Origin: a virus
Lineage: Duplodnaviria > Heunggongvirae > Uroviricota > Caudoviricetes
Length of the DNA: 9,009 nt
IMG/VR virus record: IMGVR_UViG_2671181189_000003
Direction: 5' to 3' (one strand)
The position numbers were made by a program, and so were the translations under genes. Positions 1-9,009 of the stretch are shown piece by piece. The notes under the pieces were generated by a model. It searched no databases and had not been told where the DNA came from. It worked only from the letters and a program-made list of their open reading frames with translations. Numbering within the stretch: the first letter of the stretch is position 1; each line of letters starts with the position of its first letter.

Positions 1-187
1 ACGTTTAACTCTCAAGCCTCGAGCCAAGCCTGTTTCAGAAGCCCCGTTACCTGATGAACCCATTCAGGGACATGCTGTTGCTGCAAATATCTCTGCGATT
101 GAAAAGCAGATGGAGGCGGCAGCAAACAAAGGGGATGTAGAGACGTACCGCAAGCTCAAGGCGCAACTGAATAAAGGAATTCGATAA
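1..187 (+). CDS. Scaffolding protein, C-terminal fragment (P22 gp8-like coat-binding domain); 5' end lies upstream of the window
   Basis: Frame 2 is open from base 2 to TAA at 185-187 and translates to [61 protein letters not shown]. The stop overlaps the coat ATG (TAATG), as expected for the scaffold-coat pair. Resemblance to the P22 scaffolding C-terminus is from memory. Confidence 0.75.
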
Positions 188-1479
188 TGGCATTAAATGA
201 AGGTCAACTGGTCACGTATGCTCTGGATGAAATCATCGGAACCGTCCAGAACCTGACGCCAATGGCGTCAAAAGTGACAAAATACCCCCCTCCGGCAGAA
301 TCCATGCAGCGTTCAAGCAACACCGTGTGGATGCCTGTTGAGCAGGAAGCGCCAACCCAGACTGGCTGGGATTTAACTGGCAACGCAACCGGGATTCTGG
401 AACTCTCCGTGAAGTGCAACATGGGCGATCCGGATAACGATTTCTTCGAGCTTCGTGCAGATGACCTGCGTGATGAGCGTTCTTACCGTCGCCGCATCCA
501 GGCATCCGCCAGAAAACTGGCGAATAACATTGAGTCAGCGATTGCCAAACAGGCAACTGAAATGGGCTCGCTTGTTGTTCACGATACCCGCGCAATTGGT
601 CCATCGACTGGCCTGCCTGGCTGGGATTTTGTGTCTGATGCAGAGCGACTGATGTTCTCCCGTGAGCTAAACCGCGACATGGGCATCAGTTACTTCCTGA
701 ACCCTGACGATTACCGCAAAGCAGGCCGCAACCTGGTAGATGGTGACATCTTCGGGCGCGTTCCTGAAGAAGCATATCGAAACGGTACTATTCAGCGTCA
801 GATTGCTGGCTTTGATGAAATTCTTCGCTCACCGAAACTTCCGGCAGTTACCAAGTCAACCGCGACTGGTGTAACTGTTTCTGGTGCGCAGAAGTTTAAG
901 CCGCAGGCATACACCCTTGATACCGATGGTAACAAAGAGAACGTCGACAACCGTGTTGCAACGGTGACCGTATCCTCCACCACCGGATTTAAGCGCGGCG
1001 ACAAAATCAGCTTCATTGGTGTGAAGTTCCTGTCTCAGATGGCGAAGAATGTGCTGACTGATGACGCGACTTTCTCAATCACCCGTGTGATCGATGGTAC
1101 TCACATCGAAATCACGCCGAAGCCGATTGCGCTGGATGACGCGTCACTGACAAAAGAAGAGAAGGCTTACGCTAACGTAAACACCTCTCTTGCTGATACC
1201 ACTCCGGTAAACGTTCTGAACGTGGCAACAACCACCGCTAACGTGTTCTGGGCTGATGACTCAATCCGCCTGCTGTCTCAGCCGATCCCGGTAACCCATG
1301 AACTGTTTGCTGGCATGAAAACGTCTTCCTTCAGCATTCCAGGTATTGGTGTTAACGGCATCTTCGCAACGCAGGGTGATATCAACACTCTGTCTGGTAA
1401 GTGCCGTATTGCTGTGNNNNNNNNNNNNNNNNNNNNNNNNNNNNNNNNNNNNNNNNNNNNNNNNNNNNNNNNNNNNNNN
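187..1479 (+). CDS. Major capsid (coat) protein, P22 gp5-like; 3' end hidden in N-run, end coordinate estimated
   Basis: ATG at 187; 410 unmasked residues beginning [30 protein letters not shown] and ending [37 protein letters not shown], which I recognise as strongly similar to the P22 coat protein. P22 gp5 is about 430 aa, so the stop should fall about 20 codons into the N-run (near 1479). The terminator, RBS and ATG at 1544-1582 argue against the 485-aa read-through shown in the ORF track. Confidence 0.9.
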
Positions 1480-1528
1480 NNNNNNNNNNNNNNNNNNNNN
1501 NNNNNNNNNNNNNNNNNNNNNNNNNNNN
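1417..1528. other. Masked/undetermined sequence (112 N) covering the coat gene 3' end
   Basis: Run of n characters seen directly in the sequence. Confidence 1.
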
Positions 1529-1543
1529 CGCGTGATAACCAGA

Positions 1544-1567
1544 GGGAGCTTCGGCTCCCGTTTTTAT
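1544..1567 (+). terminator. Candidate rho-independent terminator or RNA-stabilising 3' hairpin downstream of the coat gene
   Basis: GGGAGC (1544-1549), TTCG loop (1550-1553), GCTCCC (1554-1559), then G and TTTTTAT (1561-1567): a perfect 6-bp GC-rich stem with a UUCG-type tetraloop followed by a U-tract. It lies between the coat gene and the next RBS/ATG. Confidence 0.6.
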
Positions 1568-1579
1568 CTGGAGACAAGC

Positions 1580-1810
1580 ATGACACACATGATCTTTCGT
1601 CATGGCGACATGAAGAAGTGGAAAGGCGTTGGCTACGACTTTGAAATCGTGAAAGCCGAAGAGCTTCAGGAATATCTGGATGCTGGCTGGTTTTCACATC
1701 CTGATGACCTTTTGAAGGATGTTGCAGAGCCAGAGCCAGAAGAAAAACAGCGTAAAAAGCCTGGTCGAAAACCTAAGGCGGCAGCAGATGAACCTGACAA
1801 CGAAGGGTGA
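1580..1810 (+). CDS. Small hypothetical protein (76 aa) between the coat and gp4-like genes; acidic core with a basic Pro/Lys-rich C-terminal tail
   Basis: ATG at 1580 preceded by GGAGA (1570-1574); translates to [76 protein letters not shown]. Its last 23 nt overlap the gp4-like start in another frame. I believe P22-like genomes carry a small gene at this position, but that is not verified. The ORF is open upstream into the N-run, so the true start could be earlier. Confidence 0.5.
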
Positions 1811-2288
1811 TTTAGTTCTTGCGGCATTACGTAAGCTCGGTGTTGCATCAAATGCCACGTTAACCGATGTCGAACCGCAGTCTATGGAAGACGGCGTCAA
1901 CGACCTTGAAATGATGATGGCTGAATGGCTTGGCGGTGATGCGTCACCTGGTATCAACGTTGGCTACATTTTTGCTGATGCAGATGTTGCTCCGGATCCG
2001 GGCGATGAGCACGGTTTATCAAATAACGCTATCAATGCCGTCATTTTCAACCTTGCCTGCCGAATTGCTCCAGATTATGCGCTGGAAGCGTCTGCAAAAC
2101 TTATAACCACTGCCAGATACGGGAAAGAGCGACTCGTCAAACTGTCTGCAATGGACAGGGCAAAAGCAGCTAAATGTAAGTCCGGTTATCCAAACCGTAT
2201 GCCTGTTGGTAGTGGTAACCAGTTGGCGAAGTGGAATGGTTGGAATTACTTCCACCGAAAGGAACCTTGCGATAACGGGAGCGAATAA
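1788..2288 (+). CDS. Head-tail adaptor / portal-closure protein, P22 gp4-like (166 aa)
   Basis: Internal ATG at 1788 gives [50 protein letters not shown]..., which matches my recollection of the P22 gp4 N-terminus and its ~166-aa length. The stop TAA at 2286-2288 overlaps the next ATG (TAATG). The ORF-track start at 1719 would lie wholly inside the preceding small ORF. Confidence 0.85.
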
Positions 2289-3745
2289 TGCCTATTCAGC
2301 AACTTCCGCTTATGAAAGGTGTCGGCAAAGACTTCCGAAACGCCGACTATATCGACTATCTGCCAGTGAATATGCTGGCTACACCCAAAGAAATCCTGAA
2401 CAGCAGCGGATATCTTCGCTCATTCCCGGGCATTGCCAAACGTTCTGACGTGAACGGTGTATCTCGCGGCGTCGAGTACAACATGGCGCAGAATGCTGTT
2501 TATCGCGTGTGTGGCGGCAAGCTGTACAAAGGAGAAAGTGAAGTCGGTGATGTTGCCGGAAGTGGTCGTGTATCAATGGCGCATGGTCGGACATCACAGG
2601 CGGTAGGCGTTAATGGTCAACTGGTCGAGTATCGCTATGATGGCACGGTCAAAACCGTCTCAAACTGGCCTACAGACAGTGGATTCACTCAGTATGAGTT
2701 AGGTTCAGTTCGCGACATTACGCGCTTACGTGGGCGTTATGCGTGGTCAAAAGACGGAACTGATTCATGGTTTATCACTGACCTTGAAGACGAATCTCAT
2801 CCTGACCGTTACAGCGCACAATATCGTGCCGAGTCTCAGCCTGACGGCATCATCGGTATCGGGACATGGCGAGACTTCATCGTCTGCTTTGGTTCATCGA
2901 CTATTGAATATTTCTCCCTGACTGGCGCAACCACCGTTGGTGCCGCTTTGTATGTTGCACAACCATCGCTGATGGTGCAGAAAGGCATTGCCGGAACTTA
3001 CTGCAAAACGCCATTCGCTGATTCGTATGCGTTTATCAGCAATCCGGCAACGGGTGCGCCGTCTGTGTATATCATCGACTCCGGTCAGGTGTCACCAATT
3101 GCCAGCGCGAGCATTGAGAAAATCCTCCGCTCCTACACTGCTGATGAACTGGCTGATGGTGTGATGGAATCGCTGCGATTTGATGCTCATGAGTTGCTGA
3201 TTATCCACCTTCCGCGTCACGTCCTCGTGTACGACGCATCTTCAATCGCCAATGGCCCACAATGGTGTGTGCTGAAAACAGGTCTGTATGACGATGTGTA
3301 CCGCGCTATCGACTTCGTTTACGAAGGCAATCAGATAACGTGCGGCGATAAGCTGGAATCTGTTACCGGGAAACTGCAATTCGATATCAGCAGCCAGTAC
3401 GACAAGCAACAGGAACACCTGCTGTTTACTCCACTCTTCAAAGCGGATAACGCCAGAGTGTTCGACCTTGAGGTTGAATCGTCAACTGGCGTTGCGCAGT
3501 ACGCCGACCGCCTTTTTCTCTCTGCAACCACTGACTGCATCAATTACGGGCGTGAGCAGATGATTGAGCAGAATGAACCGTTCGTTTACGACAAGCGTGT
3601 TTTGTGGANNNNNNNNNNNNNNNNNNNNNNNNNNNNNNNNNNNNNNNNNNNNNNNNNNNNNNNNNNNNNNNNNNNNNNNNNNNNNNNNNNNNNNNNNNNN
3701 NNNNNNNNNNNNNNNNNNNNNNNNNNNNGCTCAGATAAGGATTGA
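2288..3745 (+). CDS. Tail hub / tail accessory factor, P22 gp10-like; 3' portion masked, end uncertain (about 3706 to 3745)
   Basis: ATG at 2288 overlapping the gp4-like stop; 440 unmasked residues [61 protein letters not shown]... consistent with P22 gp10 (about 472 aa) by sequence memory and synteny. If the N-run length is faithful and holds no stop, the frame ends at TGA 3743-3745, 4 nt before the tail-needle ATG. Confidence 0.8.
   Translation: MPIQQLPLMKGVGKDFRNADYIDYLPVNMLATPKEILNSSGYLRSFPGIAKRSDVNGVSRGVEYNMAQNAVYRVCGGKLYKGESEVGDVAGSGRVSMAHGRTSQAVGVNGQLVEYRYDGTVKTVSNWPTDSGFTQYELGSVRDITRLRGRYAWSKDGTDSWFITDLEDESHPDRYSAQYRAESQPDGIIGIGTWRDFIVCFGSSTIEYFSLTGATTVGAALYVAQPSLMVQKGIAGTYCKTPFADSYAFISNPATGAPSVYIIDSGQVSPIASASIEKILRSYTADELADGVMESLRFDAHELLIIHLPRHVLVYDASSIANGPQWCVLKTGLYDDVYRAIDFVYEGNQITCGDKLESVTGKLQFDISSQYDKQQEHLLFTPLFKADNARVFDLEVESSTGVAQYADRLFLSATTDCINYGREQMIEQNEPFVYDKRVLWXXXXXXXXXXXXXXXXXXXXXXXXXXXXXXXXXXXXXXXXXSDKD
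3610..3728. other. Masked/undetermined sequence (119 N) covering the gp10-like 3' end
   Basis: Run of n characters seen directly in the sequence. Confidence 1.
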
Positions 3746-3748
3746 GTA

Positions 3749-4597
3749 ATGGCTGATTCGAATCTCAATGTGCCGGTAATCATCCAAGCTACGCGGCTCG
3801 ATACATCAGTCCTTCCACGCAATATCTTCTCGCAGTCGTATCTGCTTTACGTTATCGCACAGGGCACTGATGTTGGTAACGTGGCTAACAAAGCCAACGA
3901 GGCCGGACAGGGCGCTTATGATGCACAGGTCAGGAACGATGAGCAGGATGTGATTCTCGCTGACCATGAGCAGCGAATTTCTGCTGCGGAAGCAACGCTT
4001 GTTAATCATGAGGAGCGAATCAGACAGGCAGAATCAACTCTTCAGGACCATGAAACACGAATAGCTCAGAATGAAAGCGATATTTCGTCGCTTGACACAA
4101 GAGTTCAGTCGCTGGAGTCGCAGGTTTCAGACCATGAAACGCGCATCGATGCTCTGGAGTATGCAACCACACGCAAGAAGTCAGAGGTTGTTTACTCTGG
4201 TGTATCTGTAACCATCCCGACAGCGCCGACCAACCTTGTTAGCCTGCTGAAAACGCTCACACCGTCATCCGGCTCGTTGGCACCATTCTTCGACACCGTT
4301 AACAACAAGATGGTTGTGTTCAACGAGAACAAAACCCTGCTCTTCAAGTTGTCGATTGTCGGCACGTGGCCCAGCGGAACCGCCAACAGGTCAATGCAGC
4401 TAACCTTTTCCGGCTCTGTTCCTGACACACTGGTCAGCAGTCGTAATGCGGCGACAACAACCGACAACATCCTGTTAGCTACGTTCTTCAGCGTGGATAA
4501 AGACGGCTTTCTTGCCACAAATGGCAGTACGTTAACCATTCAGTCGAATGGTGCGGCGTTTACTGCCACAACCATCAAGATAATCGCGGAGCAGTGA
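3749..4597 (+). CDS. Tail needle protein (P22 gp26-like N-terminus and trimeric coiled coil, with a longer C-terminal domain resembling the Sf6-type knob), 282 aa
   Basis: RBS AAGG at 3737-3740 and ATG at 3749. The N-terminus [43 protein letters not shown] matches the conserved gp26 N-terminal domain from memory. It is followed by 14-residue periodic repeats ([13 protein letters not shown] / [13 protein letters not shown] / [13 protein letters not shown] / [12 protein letters not shown]) and a roughly 140-aa Ser/Thr/Asn-rich C-terminal domain absent from the 233-aa P22 protein. Stop TGA at 4595-4597. Confidence 0.9.
3959..4165 (+). repeat. In-frame 42-nt (14-aa) periodic repeats encoding the tail-needle coiled-coil shaft
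   Basis: The motif D/N-H-E-x-R-I starts at residues 72, 86, 100 and 128, with a degenerate copy at about 114 ([10 protein letters not shown]). The nucleotide copies are diverged but recognisable (gaccatgagcagcgaat / aatcatgaggagcgaat / gaccatgaaacacgaat / gaccatgaaacgcgcat). Confidence 0.7.
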
Positions 4598-5052
4598 TGA
4601 TTACATTCAAACCAACGCGAAACATCGACCTGATAGAAGCAGTCGGAAATCACCCTGACATTATCGCCGGGAGCAACAACGGTGATGGATACGACTACAA
4701 ACCTGAATGCCGTTACTTTGAGGTGAACGTGCACGGTCAGTTTGGCGGCATTGTTTACTATCAGGAGATTCAGCCGCTGACATTAGATTGCCACGCCATG
4801 TACCTGCCAGAGATTCGCGGCTTCAGCAAGGAAATTGGGCTGGCGTTCTGGCGATACATTCTGACTAACACCACCGTTCAGTGCGTAACATCGTTCGCTG
4901 CACGCAAATTCCGACACGGTCAGATGTACTGCGCAATGATTGGCCTTAAGCGTGTAGGAACCATCAAGAAATACTTCAAAGGCGTGGATGACGTGACTTT
5001 TTACAGCGCCACACGCGAAGAACTAATCGACTTCCTGAATCACGGGAGATAG
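4597..5052 (+). CDS. Virion assembly/ejection accessory protein in the P22 gp14 position (151 aa)
   Basis: ATG at 4597 overlaps the tail-needle stop (TGATG); an in-frame GTG at 4594 is an alternative start. Translation [51 protein letters not shown]... Assignment is by synteny between the tail needle and the ejection proteins; I do not recognise the sequence itself. Confidence 0.6.
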   Translation: MITFKPTRNIDLIEAVGNHPDIIAGSNNGDGYDYKPECRYFEVNVHGQFGGIVYYQEIQPLTLDCHAMYLPEIRGFSKEIGLAFWRYILTNTTVQCVTSFAARKFRHGQMYCAMIGLKRVGTIKKYFKGVDDVTFYSATREELIDFLNHGR

Positions 5053-5054
5053 CC

Positions 5055-5796
5055 ATGTTATATGCATTTAAGCTGGGCAGAAAACTGCGCGGCGAGGAAC
5101 CTTATTGCCCTGAAAAAGGCGGGAAAGGTGGCAGTTCTGATAAAAGCGCAAAGTATGCAGCAGAAGCCCAGAAGTATGCTGCAGACCTGCAAAATCAGCA
5201 GTGGCAGACGATCATGAAAAACCTTGCTCCGTTCACGCCTCTTGCGGAGCAGNNNNNNNNNNNNNNNNNNNNNNNNNNNNNNNNNNNNNNNNNNNNNNNN
5301 NNNNNNNNNNNNNCTTCAGAACCTTTCCAGTTTAGAAGGTCAGGGGCAGGCACTTAATCAGTATTACAACTCTAAGCAGTATAAAGACCTTGCAGGGCAG
5401 GCGCGTTACCAGAGTCTTGCTGCTGCGGAGGCGACGGGTGGACTTGGTTCGACAGCCACAAGCAATCAACTGGCTACGATCGCGCCGACACTCGGTCAGT
5501 CTTGGTTATCAAATCAGATGAGCAATTACAACAATCTGGCAAACGTTGGGCTTGGTGCGCTGCAAGGTCAGGCAAACGCCGGGCAGACGTACGCCAACAA
5601 CATGAGCAGCATTGCACAGCAAAGCGCAGCTCTTGCCGCTGCTAATGCCAATAAACCATCAAGTCTTCAGACTGCAATTAGCGGTGGCACGTCTGGTGCG
5701 ATTGCCGGTGCAGGTCTTGCCAGCCTTTTGGGAACATCAACGCCTTGGGGCGCTGGTATTGGTGCTGGTATCGGATTGCTTGGCTCGTTGTTTTAA
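5055..5796 (+). CDS. Ejection (E) protein, P22 gp7-position; interrupted by N-run, with upstream and downstream parts in different frames as given
   Basis: RBS GGGAG at 5044-5048 and ATG at 5055, giving MLYAFKLGRKLRGEEPYCPEKGGKGGSSDKSAKYAAEAQKYAADLQNQQWQTIMKNLAPFTPLAEQ, then the N-run. Downstream, an ORF open from 5314 to TAA 5794-5796 is Gln/Asn/Ala/Gly-rich and ends in the hydrophobic Gly-rich tail GAIAGAGLASLLGTSTPWGAGIGAGIGLLGSLF. Combined length is about 246 aa, against about 229 aa for P22 gp7. The 61-nt mask leaves the halves offset by +1. Confidence 0.65.
5253..5313. other. Masked/undetermined sequence (61 N) inside the gp7-like gene
   Basis: Run of n characters seen directly in the sequence. 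Confidence 1.
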
Positions 5797-5805
5797 GGGG
5801 GAATC

Positions 5806-7137
5806 ATGGCTACTTGGCAAGGAACAAACGGCGGATTGTTGGCTGGTATCGGCGGCGTCAACTCAAACGCTCCGAGCGTAAATGACATCGGCAATACGCT
5901 TCAGCTTATCAGGCAGAACAATGATATTGAGCGTTCAGGCGCTAACAATGTTGGGCTGACTGCTTTGCAAGGTCTTTCAGGTATTGCGGGTGTTTTTCAG
6001 CAGGAAAAGCAGGCTCAGCGGCAGAAAGAATTTCAGCAGGCGTACGCTAATGCTTATGCGTCTGGTGATCGCGGTGCTTTGCGTCAGTTGGCTACTCAAT
6101 ATCCAGACCAGATTGAATCCGTTCGTAAAGGCATGGGATTCATTGATGAAGAGCAGCGTAATTCTATCGGCACCTTAGCGGCTGGCGCACGCCTTGCGTC
6201 ATCGTCTCCAGAAGCAATGCAATCATGGCTGCAAAACAACGCCGGTGAGTTAGCTCGTGTTGGCGTTAATCCTCATGACGTCGCTCAGATGTACCAACAG
6301 AACCCGCGGCAGTTCGGCGAATTTGTCGATCACCTGGGGATGAACAGTCTCGGGCCCGAAAAATACTTTGACCTACAGGATAAAATGCAGGGTCGCCAGG
6401 TTACCATGCGCGGTCAGGATCTGGATTCGCAAACCGCCGCTCGGAATCAGGCAATCACAATGCGCGGACAAGATATCCAGGCGAATTTAGGTCAGCAGCG
6501 CATTAATCTGGACGCAGAAACAAACCGCATTAACAACGAAAATAAGCGCCTTGACCGGATGCTATCAGCAGAAACTAACGACCTGAAGCGCCAGGAAATA
6601 CAGAGCCGCATAGCAGCCAACAACCAGCAGTTGCAGCAGAAGCAGCAAGCGCTAAATGATGGCTACAAAGACGGCATCAACACCCTCACAACCAGCATGT
6701 TCACTCTGAACGATATCGTTAGTTCTCCTTCACTTAAGAGCATTACAGGCTTACGTGGAGTAATCCCCAACGTTCCAGGCTCACAGGCTGCAGACACTCA
6801 GGCACGACTTGATACCTTTAAATCACAAGCATACCTGACAGCGGTTCAGGCCATGCGAGGCATGGGCGCACTTTCTGATGCCGAGGGCAAAAAGCTCGAC
6901 CAGGCTGTTGGTTCGCTGCAGAACTCGCAGAGCGAGGAGTCCTTTCGTCGCAACGCTGGCGTCATCCTGAACACGCTCAACCAGAAGCGTAATGAGGCGG
7001 TTGGTAAGTACGTTCAGCAAAACGGTATCAAGCGAGTGGAAGCGCCTCAGGCTTCTATAGATTACCTGAAGCAGCACCCCGAGCTGTCAATCGACTTCAT
7101 TAATCGCTACGGATATCTTCCATCTTTGGGGCAGTAA
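5806..7137 (+). CDS. Ejection (E) protein, P22 gp20-position (443 aa)
   Basis: Strong RBS AAGGGGG at 5795-5801 and ATG at 5806. Gly-rich N-terminus (MATWQGTNGGLLAGIGGVNS), a long Gln/Asn/Arg-rich predicted helical region and an internal TMRGQD repeat. Stop TAA at 7135-7137 sits directly against the next ATG. Assignment is by synteny and composition. Confidence 0.7.
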   Translation: MATWQGTNGGLLAGIGGVNSNAPSVNDIGNTLQLIRQNNDIERSGANNVGLTALQGLSGIAGVFQQEKQAQRQKEFQQAYANAYASGDRGALRQLATQYPDQIESVRKGMGFIDEEQRNSIGTLAAGARLASSSPEAMQSWLQNNAGELARVGVNPHDVAQMYQQNPRQFGEFVDHLGMNSLGPEKYFDLQDKMQGRQVTMRGQDLDSQTAARNQAITMRGQDIQANLGQQRINLDAETNRINNENKRLDRMLSAETNDLKRQEIQSRIAANNQQLQQKQQALNDGYKDGINTLTTSMFTLNDIVSSPSLKSITGLRGVIPNVPGSQAADTQARLDTFKSQAYLTAVQAMRGMGALSDAEGKKLDQAVGSLQNSQSEESFRRNAGVILNTLNQKRNEAVGKYVQQNGIKRVEAPQASIDYLKQHPELSIDFINRYGYLPSLGQ

Positions 7138-8868
7138 ATGGCTAATTACCGTGATTTGTTAGAGCAGGCTGGCGCACGTTACGGTGTGCCAGAAGGGTTG
7201 ATGACTGCACTGGGTGCCAAGGAGTCTTCTTACAACCCTGCCGCAGTAAGCTCCGCCGGGGCTGTAGGATTGACTCAGGTCATGCCTGGGACATGGCGTG
7301 ATATGGGTTATACCGATGAGCAAATGCAAAACCCCGAATATCAGGCTGACGCTGGCGCGCGCTATCTGGCAAAGATGTACCAGCAGTTTGGTAACTGGCG
7401 TGACTCTCTTCAGGCTTATCACGACGGTCCCGGCAACGTTATGAAGGCAAAGCGTGGTGAATATACGCCAGGACCTGAAGGCCGCGGTTACGTTGATGAT
7501 CGCTTTGCTCAATGGGCTGGTGACCCGGTGACAGACTCAACAGTCGAACAGCGCGCCACCTCTGCAAAGGTACATCCTCAGCAAGACCCTAACAACCCGT
7601 TTGCACAACTGGAAGTACAGTCATCCGAACAAGTATCGGCATCAGGTGTGCAGTCAGACCCAAATAATCCATTTGCTCAGATTGAGCAGCAGGCAGCCAG
7701 TCAGCAGCCACCTCAACCCGTAAGTTCTGTCGCACCGAAACCTGTTCAGCAACAAACAGTTAATCAGGCCAATAATGCACCAACACGGGAAGAACCATCA
7801 TTGATGCAACAAGCTGGCGATTGGCTCACTGGTGGTCAAAGTGCAGGGCAAATTGCAGAACAGGCTGGTCGTGGTCTGGTAAACATACCATTTGACGTAT
7901 TGCAGGGTGGCGCAAGTCTGATTAATGCAATCAGTCAGGGGCTTGGGGGGCCAAAAGTATTGGATGATGTTTATCGTCCAGTAGACAGACCGACAGACCC
8001 CTACGCGCAAGCTGGAGAGTCAATAGGCGGTTATCTTGTTCCTGGAGCAGGTGTAGCTGGAAACATGGTCATTGGTTCTCTCGCTGACGCGGCGAATCAA
8101 CGGGGTGATTTTGCCGAAAATGCCGCTATTAATGCCGGACTTAGCATTGCTACGCATGGCCTGATAAATGGCGTTACCCGTGGTGTTCGTGGTGCATCAA
8201 ATATAATTAGTGGCAATAAAACATCTGCACAGAGAGCGACCACTGCGCCAACAGAAACATCACCATTCTCCGGTGATGCCGCTGCAGCAACAAATCCTGC
8301 GGTTCATGCCGCAGAGGCAAGAGTAGCACAAGGTGTACCAATGACGCCTGCGACGAAGAACCCAGAGGAAGTCGTTCGCACAGTAGCAGCACAAAAAAGG
8401 CCAAATCTCGCTTCATCGCTTGATGAACTAGATATCAATCCTCAGGCTGAAGTTCTGGAGTCTGCTGAAAGGCTTAATGTTGATTCATTACTCCCTTCAC
8501 ACTTTTCCGGGAACGAGCAATACAAGGCAGTTGAGCAAGCAATCAAGTCCCGTGCGGGTTCTGCTCTACAGGTGCAGGAAAATGAAGCAATCAGGCAGCT
8601 AGCACAGGGCGCGGGTGAGATAATTGATCGCGTTTCCGGTGCAAAAGATGCTCTTGGTATGAGCGACAAGTTTATTGATACGGTCAATGGAAGAATGTCT
8701 GCGCTGATGAAACGAAGCGACCAGCTTTATCGCAATGTTGAAAAGGCGATGCCTGCAGGTGCAAAAATTGATGCGCCATCAACAAGGTCAATGCTCAAAC
8801 AGGTGGCAGAAGATCTTGGCGGGATGAAAAACCTTGACCCTATTGAAAAGAGAGTTGAGGTAGCCTGA
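7138..8868 (+). CDS. Ejection (E) protein, P22 gp16-position, with an N-terminal soluble-lytic-transglycosylase-like domain (576 aa)
   Basis: ATG at 7138. Residues about 20-100 carry the SLT family motifs: KESSYNP (candidate catalytic Glu29, codon 7222-7224), [14 protein letters not shown] (GLxQ motif) and AYHDGPGNV (AYNxG-like). These are followed by the tandem DPNNPFAQ repeats, a Gly/Ala-rich hydrophobic segment (about residues 296-350) and a helical C-terminus. Stop TGA at 8866-8868. Confidence 0.75.
7585..7686 (+). repeat. Two in-frame copies of a DPNNPFAQ(L/I)E peptide repeat, 72 nt apart, within the gp16-position gene
   Basis: gaccctaacaacccgtttgcacaactggaa (7585-7614) and gacccaaataatccatttgctcagattgag (7657-7686) encode [10 protein letters not shown] and [10 protein letters not shown], with many synonymous differences between the two copies. 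Confidence 0.8.
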
Positions 8869-8880
8869 GTTTAACGGACA

Positions 8881-8913
8881 CTCCTTCCTGAAATAGAATG
8901 GCATCAGAAGGAG
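8881..8913 (+). promoter_or_regulatory. Hairpin pairing an anti-Shine-Dalgarno sequence (CTCCTTC) with the downstream SD (GAAGGAG); a candidate sigma70-like promoter overlaps the region
   Basis: CTCCTTC at 8881-8887 is the exact reverse complement of GAAGGAG at 8907-8913 (19-nt loop). TTAACG (8871-8876), a 17-nt spacer and TAGAAT (8894-8899) resemble -35/-10 elements. This is the only real intergenic gap in the operon. Confidence 0.3.
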
Positions 8914-8993
8914 CTAATAATGAGCAGAAAAACCCAACGTGAACCGCCCCGGGAATCCTGGAGACTAAACTTCCTGAGAAAGAGGTAAACAGG

Positions 8994-9009
8994 ATGACTA
9001 AAAATACTC
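8994..9009 (+). CDS. Start of a downstream gene (only 5 codons in the window: MTKNT...); identity unknown
   Basis: ATG at 8994 preceded by AGAGG at 8981-8985. It does not begin with the MTDI... N-terminus I recall for P22/Sf6/HK620 tailspikes, so it may be an accessory (immI-like or moron) gene rather than the tailspike. Confidence 0.3.

Follow-up and report, generated by a model that had tools for sequence, protein, structure and literature searches.

An N-terminal lytic transglycosylase domain in a gp16-slot gene of a P22-like prophage remnant, truncated by IS600

The last gene of the window (the whole stretch of DNA that was analysed, 9,009 nucleotides) encodes over residues 7-110 a bona fide family-1 lytic transglycosylase (GH23) domain, as judged by both sequence and fold. 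This domain, hereafter SLT, is an optional and portable cassette, found where the N-terminus of gp16 homologues varies. The copy found here is a pseudogene, and the prophage remnant around it is fixed in a lineage of Shigella.

The window very probably derives from a Shigella flexneri prophage remnant of P22-like (Lederbergvirus) type and covers its late (virion) operon, the open reading frame (ORF) at 7138 being the 5′ 63% of the gene that occupies the gp16 slot. All long ORFs lie on the plus strand, and their Pfam and PHROG identities give the order coat-gp4-gp10-needle-gp14-gp7-gp20-X, where X is the ORF at 7138:

187 to about 1416, plus strand: coat protein (Pfam P22_CoatProtein, E=7e-152)
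1719-2288, plus strand: gp4 homologue
2288 to about 3745, plus strand: gp10
3749-4597, plus strand: tail needle with knob, Sf6-type
4594-5052, plus strand: gp14 homologue (Pfam DUF2824, E=1e-52; PHROG 651)
5055-5796, plus strand: gp7 homologue, the outer-membrane / extracellular channel ejection protein (97-98% nucleotide identity to Sf101_0011, 'DNA transfer protein')
5806-7137, plus strand: gp20 homologue, the periplasmic tube ejection protein (Pfam PF16928 Inj_translocase, E=1e-67; PHROG 2534)

Runs of N at 1417-1528, 3609-3728 and 5253-5313 mask parts of the coat, gp10 and gp7 genes. The last ORF (ATG start, 7138-8868, plus strand, 576 aa) abuts by its ATG the stop codon of the gp20 gene and closes the gp14-gp7-gp20-gp16 cluster, directly after the gp14, gp7 and gp20 homologues, in the slot to which the preliminary description of this DNA had assigned it. 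It was matched by PHROG 770, 'DNA transfer protein' (E=2e-107), and its homologues are listed under Pfam family PF26808. A scan of the window with Rfam gave no match, and a scan for promoters and terminators gave nothing above shuffled-sequence expectation, save one promoter-like site within the IS600 end (see below). ORFs of 117 aa or shorter on the minus strand beneath the gp16-slot gene were disregarded as unsupported. The parts of the gene and the sequences that interrupt it are the following:

7138-8855, plus strand: surviving part of the gene-16-slot ('DNA transfer') gene, Sf101 gp13 type (codons 1-573 of 911)
7156-7467, plus strand: SLT / family-1 lytic transglycosylase domain (residues 7-110; folded domain about residues 1-125)
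7219-7239, plus strand: motif KESSYNP (residues 28-34)
7222-7224, plus strand: codon for E29, the Glu of the E-S motif predicted to be catalytic
7267-7287, plus strand: motif II, GLTQVMP (residues 44-50; GLTQ, residues 44-47, aligned to GLMQ of Slt70)
7414-7434, plus strand: motif III, AYHDGPG (residues 93-99; aligned to AYNAGPG of Slt70)
7513-7785, plus strand: Q/P/A/S-rich linker, predicted disordered (residues 126-216)
7585-7614 and 7657-7686, plus strand: two copies of the repeat DPNNPFAQ(L/I)E, in the linker (residues 150-159 and 174-183)
7786-8202, plus strand: conserved gp16 core (residues 217-355)
8023-8187, plus strand: Gly/Ala-rich segment, inside the core (residues 296-350)
8203-8855, plus strand: variable helical body, truncated (residues 356-573)
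8856-8939, plus strand: left end of IS600
8940-9009, plus strand: left end of a second IS3-family element, nested in IS600

Assignment of the N-terminal domain goes far beyond chance, since the Pfam SLT model (PF01464) matched residues 7-110 with 86.9 bits (E=9.3e-25), against a cut-off of 21.3. The NCBIfam models Slt70, MltC, EmtA and MltD all matched the same N-terminal stretch, and a search of PDB sequences returned Slt70 (E=1.3e-11), MltC, MltE and T7 gp16 (E=7.5e-4). An AlphaFold model made with 32 homologues had a pLDDT of 86-96 for residues 1-120, and the Foldseek matches in the PDB were lytic transglycosylases and T7 gp16, the best being Slt70, P. aeruginosa Slt, LtgA, MltF/D/E/C and T7 gp16. 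By AlphaFold and Foldseek together, these residues have the goose-lysozyme-like alpha-helical fold. The preliminary description had read a set of three SLT motifs in this region, and they are indeed present in the order and spacing claimed; the profile that it proposed to search with residues 1-130 gave the match reported above, and the Glu in question, E29, aligns with E478 of Slt70 and with E37 of T7 gp16, a residue named as catalytic (PMC8954989).

The E. coli enzymes Slt70, MltE and MltC have the same catalytic-domain fold and motifs, with 33% identity to Slt70 over ~150 aligned positions in the fold search. All three are cellular enzymes that undergo export and bear signal or lipoprotein sequences as well as accessory domains, whereas the domain studied here belongs to a phage protein, the N-terminus of which has no signal-peptide-like sequence or other export signal. 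T7 gp16 (1318 aa), the last and largest of the ejection proteins, likewise has its SLT domain at the N-terminus. Its N-terminal domain is 28% identical to ours (pairwise E=9e-11), with E29 and E37 aligned, and the likeness reaches the PEGRxY segment past motif III; over this domain, the T7 gp16-like architecture suggested earlier was confirmed. In contrast, a search of PDB sequences with the full 911-aa protein detected no similarity to T7 gp16 outside the SLT domain (after about residue 125), so that the core-stack part, the remaining ~1150 residues of T7 gp16, found no counterpart, and the window protein is much shorter. P22-like phages form no T7-type core stack (PMC8954989). Judging from its sequence, the SLT-gp16 protein would work like T7 gp16-N, but it is not a member of the T7 gp16 family overall.

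The linker that follows the SLT domain contains 19% Q, 13% A, 13% P and 11% S, and its pLDDT is below 50 save for short helices over the two DPNNPFAQ(L/I)E copies. Both copies are conserved in every bearer of the SLT and linker cassette; Tandem Repeats Finder detected no DNA repeat beneath them. Next comes the core, shared with P22 gp16 (609 aa) and HK620 gp16 (722 aa), which occupy the same slot. It is 81% identical over 137 aa (E=1e-67) to residues 53-189 of P22 gp16, and near-identical to HK620 gp16 over residues 217-300 of our protein. Upstream of it, P22 and HK620 gp16 have an N-terminus of 52-59 aa without any Pfam domain, where the window protein has instead its ~216-aa SLT and linker cassette. 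Pfam found no SLT domain in either of these two proteins, as the preliminary description had suggested in the case of P22. Beyond residue 355, identity to HK620 gp16 is ~30% (~34% across most of HK620 gp16), and sequence comparison detected no similarity to P22 gp16. This body is predicted to be helical with moderate to low confidence; the AlphaFold model of residues 126-573 as a whole is of low confidence (mean pLDDT 59). Since the model is poor after residue 125, it is homology that argues for a channel-forming part.

The Gly/Ala-rich segment of the core had been pointed out as hydrophobic and possibly membrane-interacting. Its composition is real (G 20%, A 18%), but it is only moderately hydrophobic: the best 19-residue Kyte-Doolittle mean was 1.20, compared to a usual threshold of ~1.6 for transmembrane helices, so that no canonical transmembrane helix is predicted within residues 296-350. 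Gly/Ala-rich, moderately hydrophobic helices are common to the protein in this slot, to P22 gp16 and to HK620 gp16. P22 gp16 is described as having no strongly predicted transmembrane helices while forming the channel part that spans the cytoplasmic membrane (bioRxiv 10.64898/2026.09.03.749273), and the Kyte-Doolittle result agrees with that statement. In the intact 911-aa form, the helical body extends over residues 356-911 and includes a second Gly-rich hydrophobic stretch (residues 802-820), lost from the window copy.

The closest known relatives of the protein are gp13 of Shigella phage Sf101 (Sf101_0013, AII27837, 'transglycosylase', 911 aa) and its homologue in Escherichia phage APC_JM3.2, both intact. 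Sf101 gp13 likewise follows gp7 and gp20 homologues. The operon around the gene is mosaic with respect to Sf101: in the window, the coat/gp4 type differs, and the needle is of the Sf6 type with a knob. The gene itself is 98.5% identical to Sf101_0013 (KJ832078) at the nucleotide level, and 99% at the amino acid level over residues 1-573, and homology stops at nucleotide 8855 (V573). The 84 nucleotides that follow reproduce, at 100% identity, the beginning of an element annotated as 'IS3-like element IS600 family transposase'. The ATG of orfA falls at 8920, and this terminal sequence makes the element a member of IS600 (IS3 family). It provides the final three codons of the ORF (E-V-A) and its stop codon (8857-8868). 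The ORF announced at 7138-8868 thus exists, with an ATG and 576 codons, but its end is not native, as it derives from IS600 after 8855. From 8940 onwards, the window agrees at 100% with the left terminus of an element annotated as 'IS3 family transposase'. We take this second, nested element to be IS629/IS1203-like. It is present in full (~1.3 kb) at locus L006 of S. flexneri.

An identical junction was found in two genomes, S. flexneri SFBU1023 (100% identical to 8183-9009 of the window) and ECMA0423, which is labelled E. coli. Over 5.7-7.2 kb downstream of the junction, these two genomes contain no remainder of gene 16, no Sf101-like sequence and no further IS600; the second IS is followed by chromosomal DNA, including an alkaline-phosphatase fragment. 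IS600 inserted after codon 573, and the second IS3-family element in turn hit IS600. Compared to Sf101 and APC_JM3.2, the window copy is without residues 574-911 owing to IS600, and is therefore not a complete coding sequence for an ejection protein of P22 gp16 type. Having lost its last 338 codons, along with every phage gene that lay downstream, this copy is a pseudogene; it cannot be a working ejection protein, as the preliminary description had implicitly supposed it to be, and plays no role in infection. The assignment to the P22 gp16 family holds for the gene lineage, despite the truncation of this copy.

We next consider how the SLT domain is distributed. Bodies of gp16 homologues occur with and without the cassette, and the cassette occurs on unrelated bodies, which is why we regard it as optional. 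The E. coli prophage proteins P0002, P0008 and P0011 have the same body as ours (94-98% identity) behind short N-termini of P22 or HK620 type. Conversely, an identical SLT and linker cassette is fused to an unrelated body in IME10-type proteins of E. coli prophages (797 aa; one cluster has 1295 members). There, the first 618 nucleotides are 99% identical to the window, and the body, unlike that of the window protein, has no P22-type core. In the relatives P0043, P0054 and P0057, a P22-like N-terminal peptide is kept and the SLT domain is placed after it. The idea of a domain-swapped protein is therefore correct as far as modularity goes, short N-termini or SLT being found on one and the same body. 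The Gly/Ala-rich segment, however, was not swapped in: no part is more conserved with P22 gp16 (81%).

Among 5426 complete E. coli genomes, 610 contain the P22-type gp16 core and 70 contain the cassette (nucleotides 7138-7755), always annotated "lytic transglycosylase domain-containing protein". Phage isolates that bear it include Sf101, APC_JM3.2, IME10, phiKp_30, Huey and Dewey. Full-length SLT-gp16 proteins with 31-34% identity exist in other genera having P22-like virion modules, for example in Murrayvirus IME_EC2 (gp26), Skarpretter, Sortsne, Lumpael, Klebsiella IME279 and Kosakonia phages, and homologues are annotated in Serratia, Klebsiella, Cronobacter, Pluralibacter and Shimwellia. 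Gp26 of IME_EC2 (1007 aa), 31% identical over its full length and encoded in an operon of the order gp4-gp10-needle-gp7-gp20-gp16, differs by an extra N-terminal peptide of 33 aa. The linker repeats also vary by group: NPFAQ in the window, NxFDQF in Murrayvirus, and GPWEKYQ/QPW in Serratia and Klebsiella prophages. One might propose that the SLT cassette and its two-repeat linker form a self-contained module that recombines, across the P22 supergroup, with gp16 bodies having nothing else in common, the aromatic repeats being a counterpart of the T7 gp16 'molecular tape' that would dock the enzyme onto the gp20 tube. We hold this proposal to be doubtful, and unlikely on balance.

Several other readings of these data deserve consideration, two of which concern the truncated copy itself. 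A clean ORF with a stop codon, the listing of the 576-aa form at NCBI as a complete Shigella protein, and a PHROG 21143 profile whose length is exactly 576 would all fit an intact native protein, that is, a short SLT-plus-channel ejection protein. There is hardly any probability left to this reading, which is refuted by the junction analysis, given that the final three codons and the stop lie within IS600, whose first 84 nucleotides are matched at 100%. In addition, the Sf101 and APC_JM3.2 proteins run on for another 338 residues past the same point, and only one Shigella lineage has the 576-aa form. The exact 576-aa sequence nevertheless occurs in at least 1000 contigs, where it is called "lytic transglycosylase domain-containing protein [Shigella]" or "DNA transfer protein", and its cluster has 227 members. 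Such a spread of an identical truncated allele might suggest that S. flexneri has exapted the SLT fragment as a host-beneficial gene. We give that idea next to no credit as well: clonal descent of the IS-rich S. flexneri explains the pattern, the fragment has no signal peptide with which to reach the periplasm, the gene is part of a late operon that needs phage antitermination, and no independent promoter exceeds shuffled-sequence expectation. A pseudogene remains our reading of this copy.

Two further readings bear on what the domain does in intact relatives. It might have lost catalysis and serve instead to bind peptidoglycan or as an anchor, or else form a structural 'wing' of the periplasmic tube; the gp16-N domains of T7 do form structural wings on the gp15 tunnel, too (PMC8954989), and P22-type phages without the domain infect normally. 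We find an inactive domain quite improbable, as the catalytic Glu-Ser pair, GLxQ and AYxxGxG are all kept. Moreover, E29 and the motifs recur among divergent homologues down to about 40% identity, which is the pattern that selection for catalysis would be expected to leave in the sequences. Less probable still is an enzyme acting late, in lysis or in wall remodelling during assembly or release, rather than at entry. In some databases, relatives go under the label 'endolysin' or 'lytic tail fiber protein', but the domain is fused to a gp16 homologue that translationally abuts gp20 within the cluster of ejection-protein genes, it lacks a signal peptide and any feature of holin-dependent export, and P22-like phages possess a separate holin/endolysin/spanin cassette elsewhere (P22 map). 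We thus favour an active transglycosylase employed at entry.

For the intact relatives, analogy with T7 and P22 gp16 leads us to infer that the protein is packaged in the virion, ejected and enzymatically active, and that it takes part in entry. The protein comprises four parts: the SLT domain (residue 1 to ~125), the Q/P-rich linker, the core shared with P22, and the long helical C-terminal body. It would be packaged in the capsid and, on ejection, pass through the tail and then the gp7 channel to reach the periplasm. In that compartment, the SLT domain would cut MurNAc-GlcNAc bonds locally and widen the murein mesh, which may allow assembly of the gp20 tube in the periplasm and of the gp16 complex at the cytoplasmic membrane. 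The core and the C-terminal body would presumably make up the portion of the DNA conduit at the inner membrane. In T7, gp16-N is a transglycosylase required when the peptidoglycan is highly cross-linked (PMC8954989), and P22 gp16 associates with membranes in vitro (PMC10883804). Muralytic activity of the P22 virion has been assigned to gp4 (PMC5380687). Because P22 infects without SLT on its gp16, and because the window likewise encodes a gp4 homologue, the SLT domain may be dispensable or, more probably, only conditionally useful as in T7.

The fusion of SLT to gp16 is already known: it is annotated in GenBank (Sf101, 2014), RefSeq, UniRef, PHROGs and PGAP, under labels such as "internal virion protein with endolysin domain". 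An earlier description of an SLT-bearing gp16 may exist, most likely in Casjens & Thuman-Commike 2011 (Virology 411:393) or Casjens & Grose 2016. In the Sf101 paper, the SLT domain goes unmentioned, and in the accessible literature on P22-like phages, Lederbergvirus, and DNA transfer protein combined with transglycosylase, we found only a 2022 review and genome announcements. That review states that a gp16-borne transglycosylase is absent from P22-like phages. This statement is wrong, given the 70 E. coli genomes reported above, Sf101, APC_JM3.2, IME10, Huey and Dewey, and the neighbouring Murrayvirus.

For the window itself, the significance is little, as it holds a decayed fragment of a fusion that was already annotated. 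For the field, the point is a modest one, namely the correction of the supposed absence of SLT from P22-like phages. If the module and docking proposal were true, P22-like phages would fall into two mechanistic classes for murein crossing, contrary to the published statement. The natural pairs of near-identical gp16 bodies with and without the cassette offer a clean system in which to ask when DNA entry needs a virion-borne murein enzyme.

The late operon of the window is a mosaic relative to the Shigella phage Sf101, as seen when positions 1-4597 were compared with the Sf101 locus. The coat and gp4 region (1-2282) found no nucleotide match in Sf101, and neither did the tail needle (3749-4597), which is an Sf6-type knob needle in the window (Pfam PF16532, E=2e-116), whereas that of Sf101 is a 212-aa needle. 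Identity to Sf101 was 93-98.5% for gp10, gp14, gp7, gp20 and gene 16. Between coat and gp4, a small ORF (1530-1810) with a Lys/Pro/Glu-rich tail, whose start is concealed by a masked run of N, occupies the slot of P22 orf69 and Sf101_0006. Three such runs are present in the window:

1417-1528, run of N
3609-3728, run of N
5253-5313, run of N

The run inside gp7 spans 61 nt, whereas the corresponding stretch of Sf101 measures just 12 nt, and the gp7 reading frame, as listed among the ORFs, is broken at this point. The masks thus seem to differ in length from the sequence they cover. The ends of the coat, gp10 and gp7 genes close to the masks were unreadable.

At the 3′ end of the window, gene 16 is cut by insertion sequences:

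8856-8939, left end of IS600 (84 nt), then broken by another IS3-family element
8940-9009, left end of this second IS3-family element, nested inside IS600

At an S. flexneri locus where the second element is found in full (L006), no more IS600 sequence was found after it, and the element is followed by chromosomal DNA including an alkaline-phosphatase fragment. This arrangement implies that the distal part of the prophage was removed through an IS-mediated deletion.

Upstream of the gp16 body, the disordered linker of the SLT cassette (the N-terminal lytic transglycosylase domain plus this linker) contains two copies of a short repeat:

7585-7614, DPNNPFAQ(L/I)E (aa 150-159)
7657-7686, DPNNPFAQ(L/I)E (aa 174-183)

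This repeat was kept in all bearers of this SLT cassette, Shimwellia included. In other SLT-gp16 lineages, short aromatic motifs differing from it stand at the same positions, namely NIFDQF/NVFDQF in IME_EC2 and, in prophages of Serratia and Klebsiella, two copies of GPWEKYQ together with QPW. These repeats and aromatic motifs may be docking motifs.

In three E. coli prophage homologues (P0002, P0008 and P0011), the gp16 body was 94-98% identical to window 7786-8855, and the SLT cassette was absent, replaced by short N-termini of P22 type (MKVTANGKTF...) or HK620 type (MAKAWKDV...). Precomputed annotations assign Pfam family PF26808 to the gp16 core of homologues. Near-identical gp16 bodies with and without the SLT cassette are natural pairs usable in functional tests.
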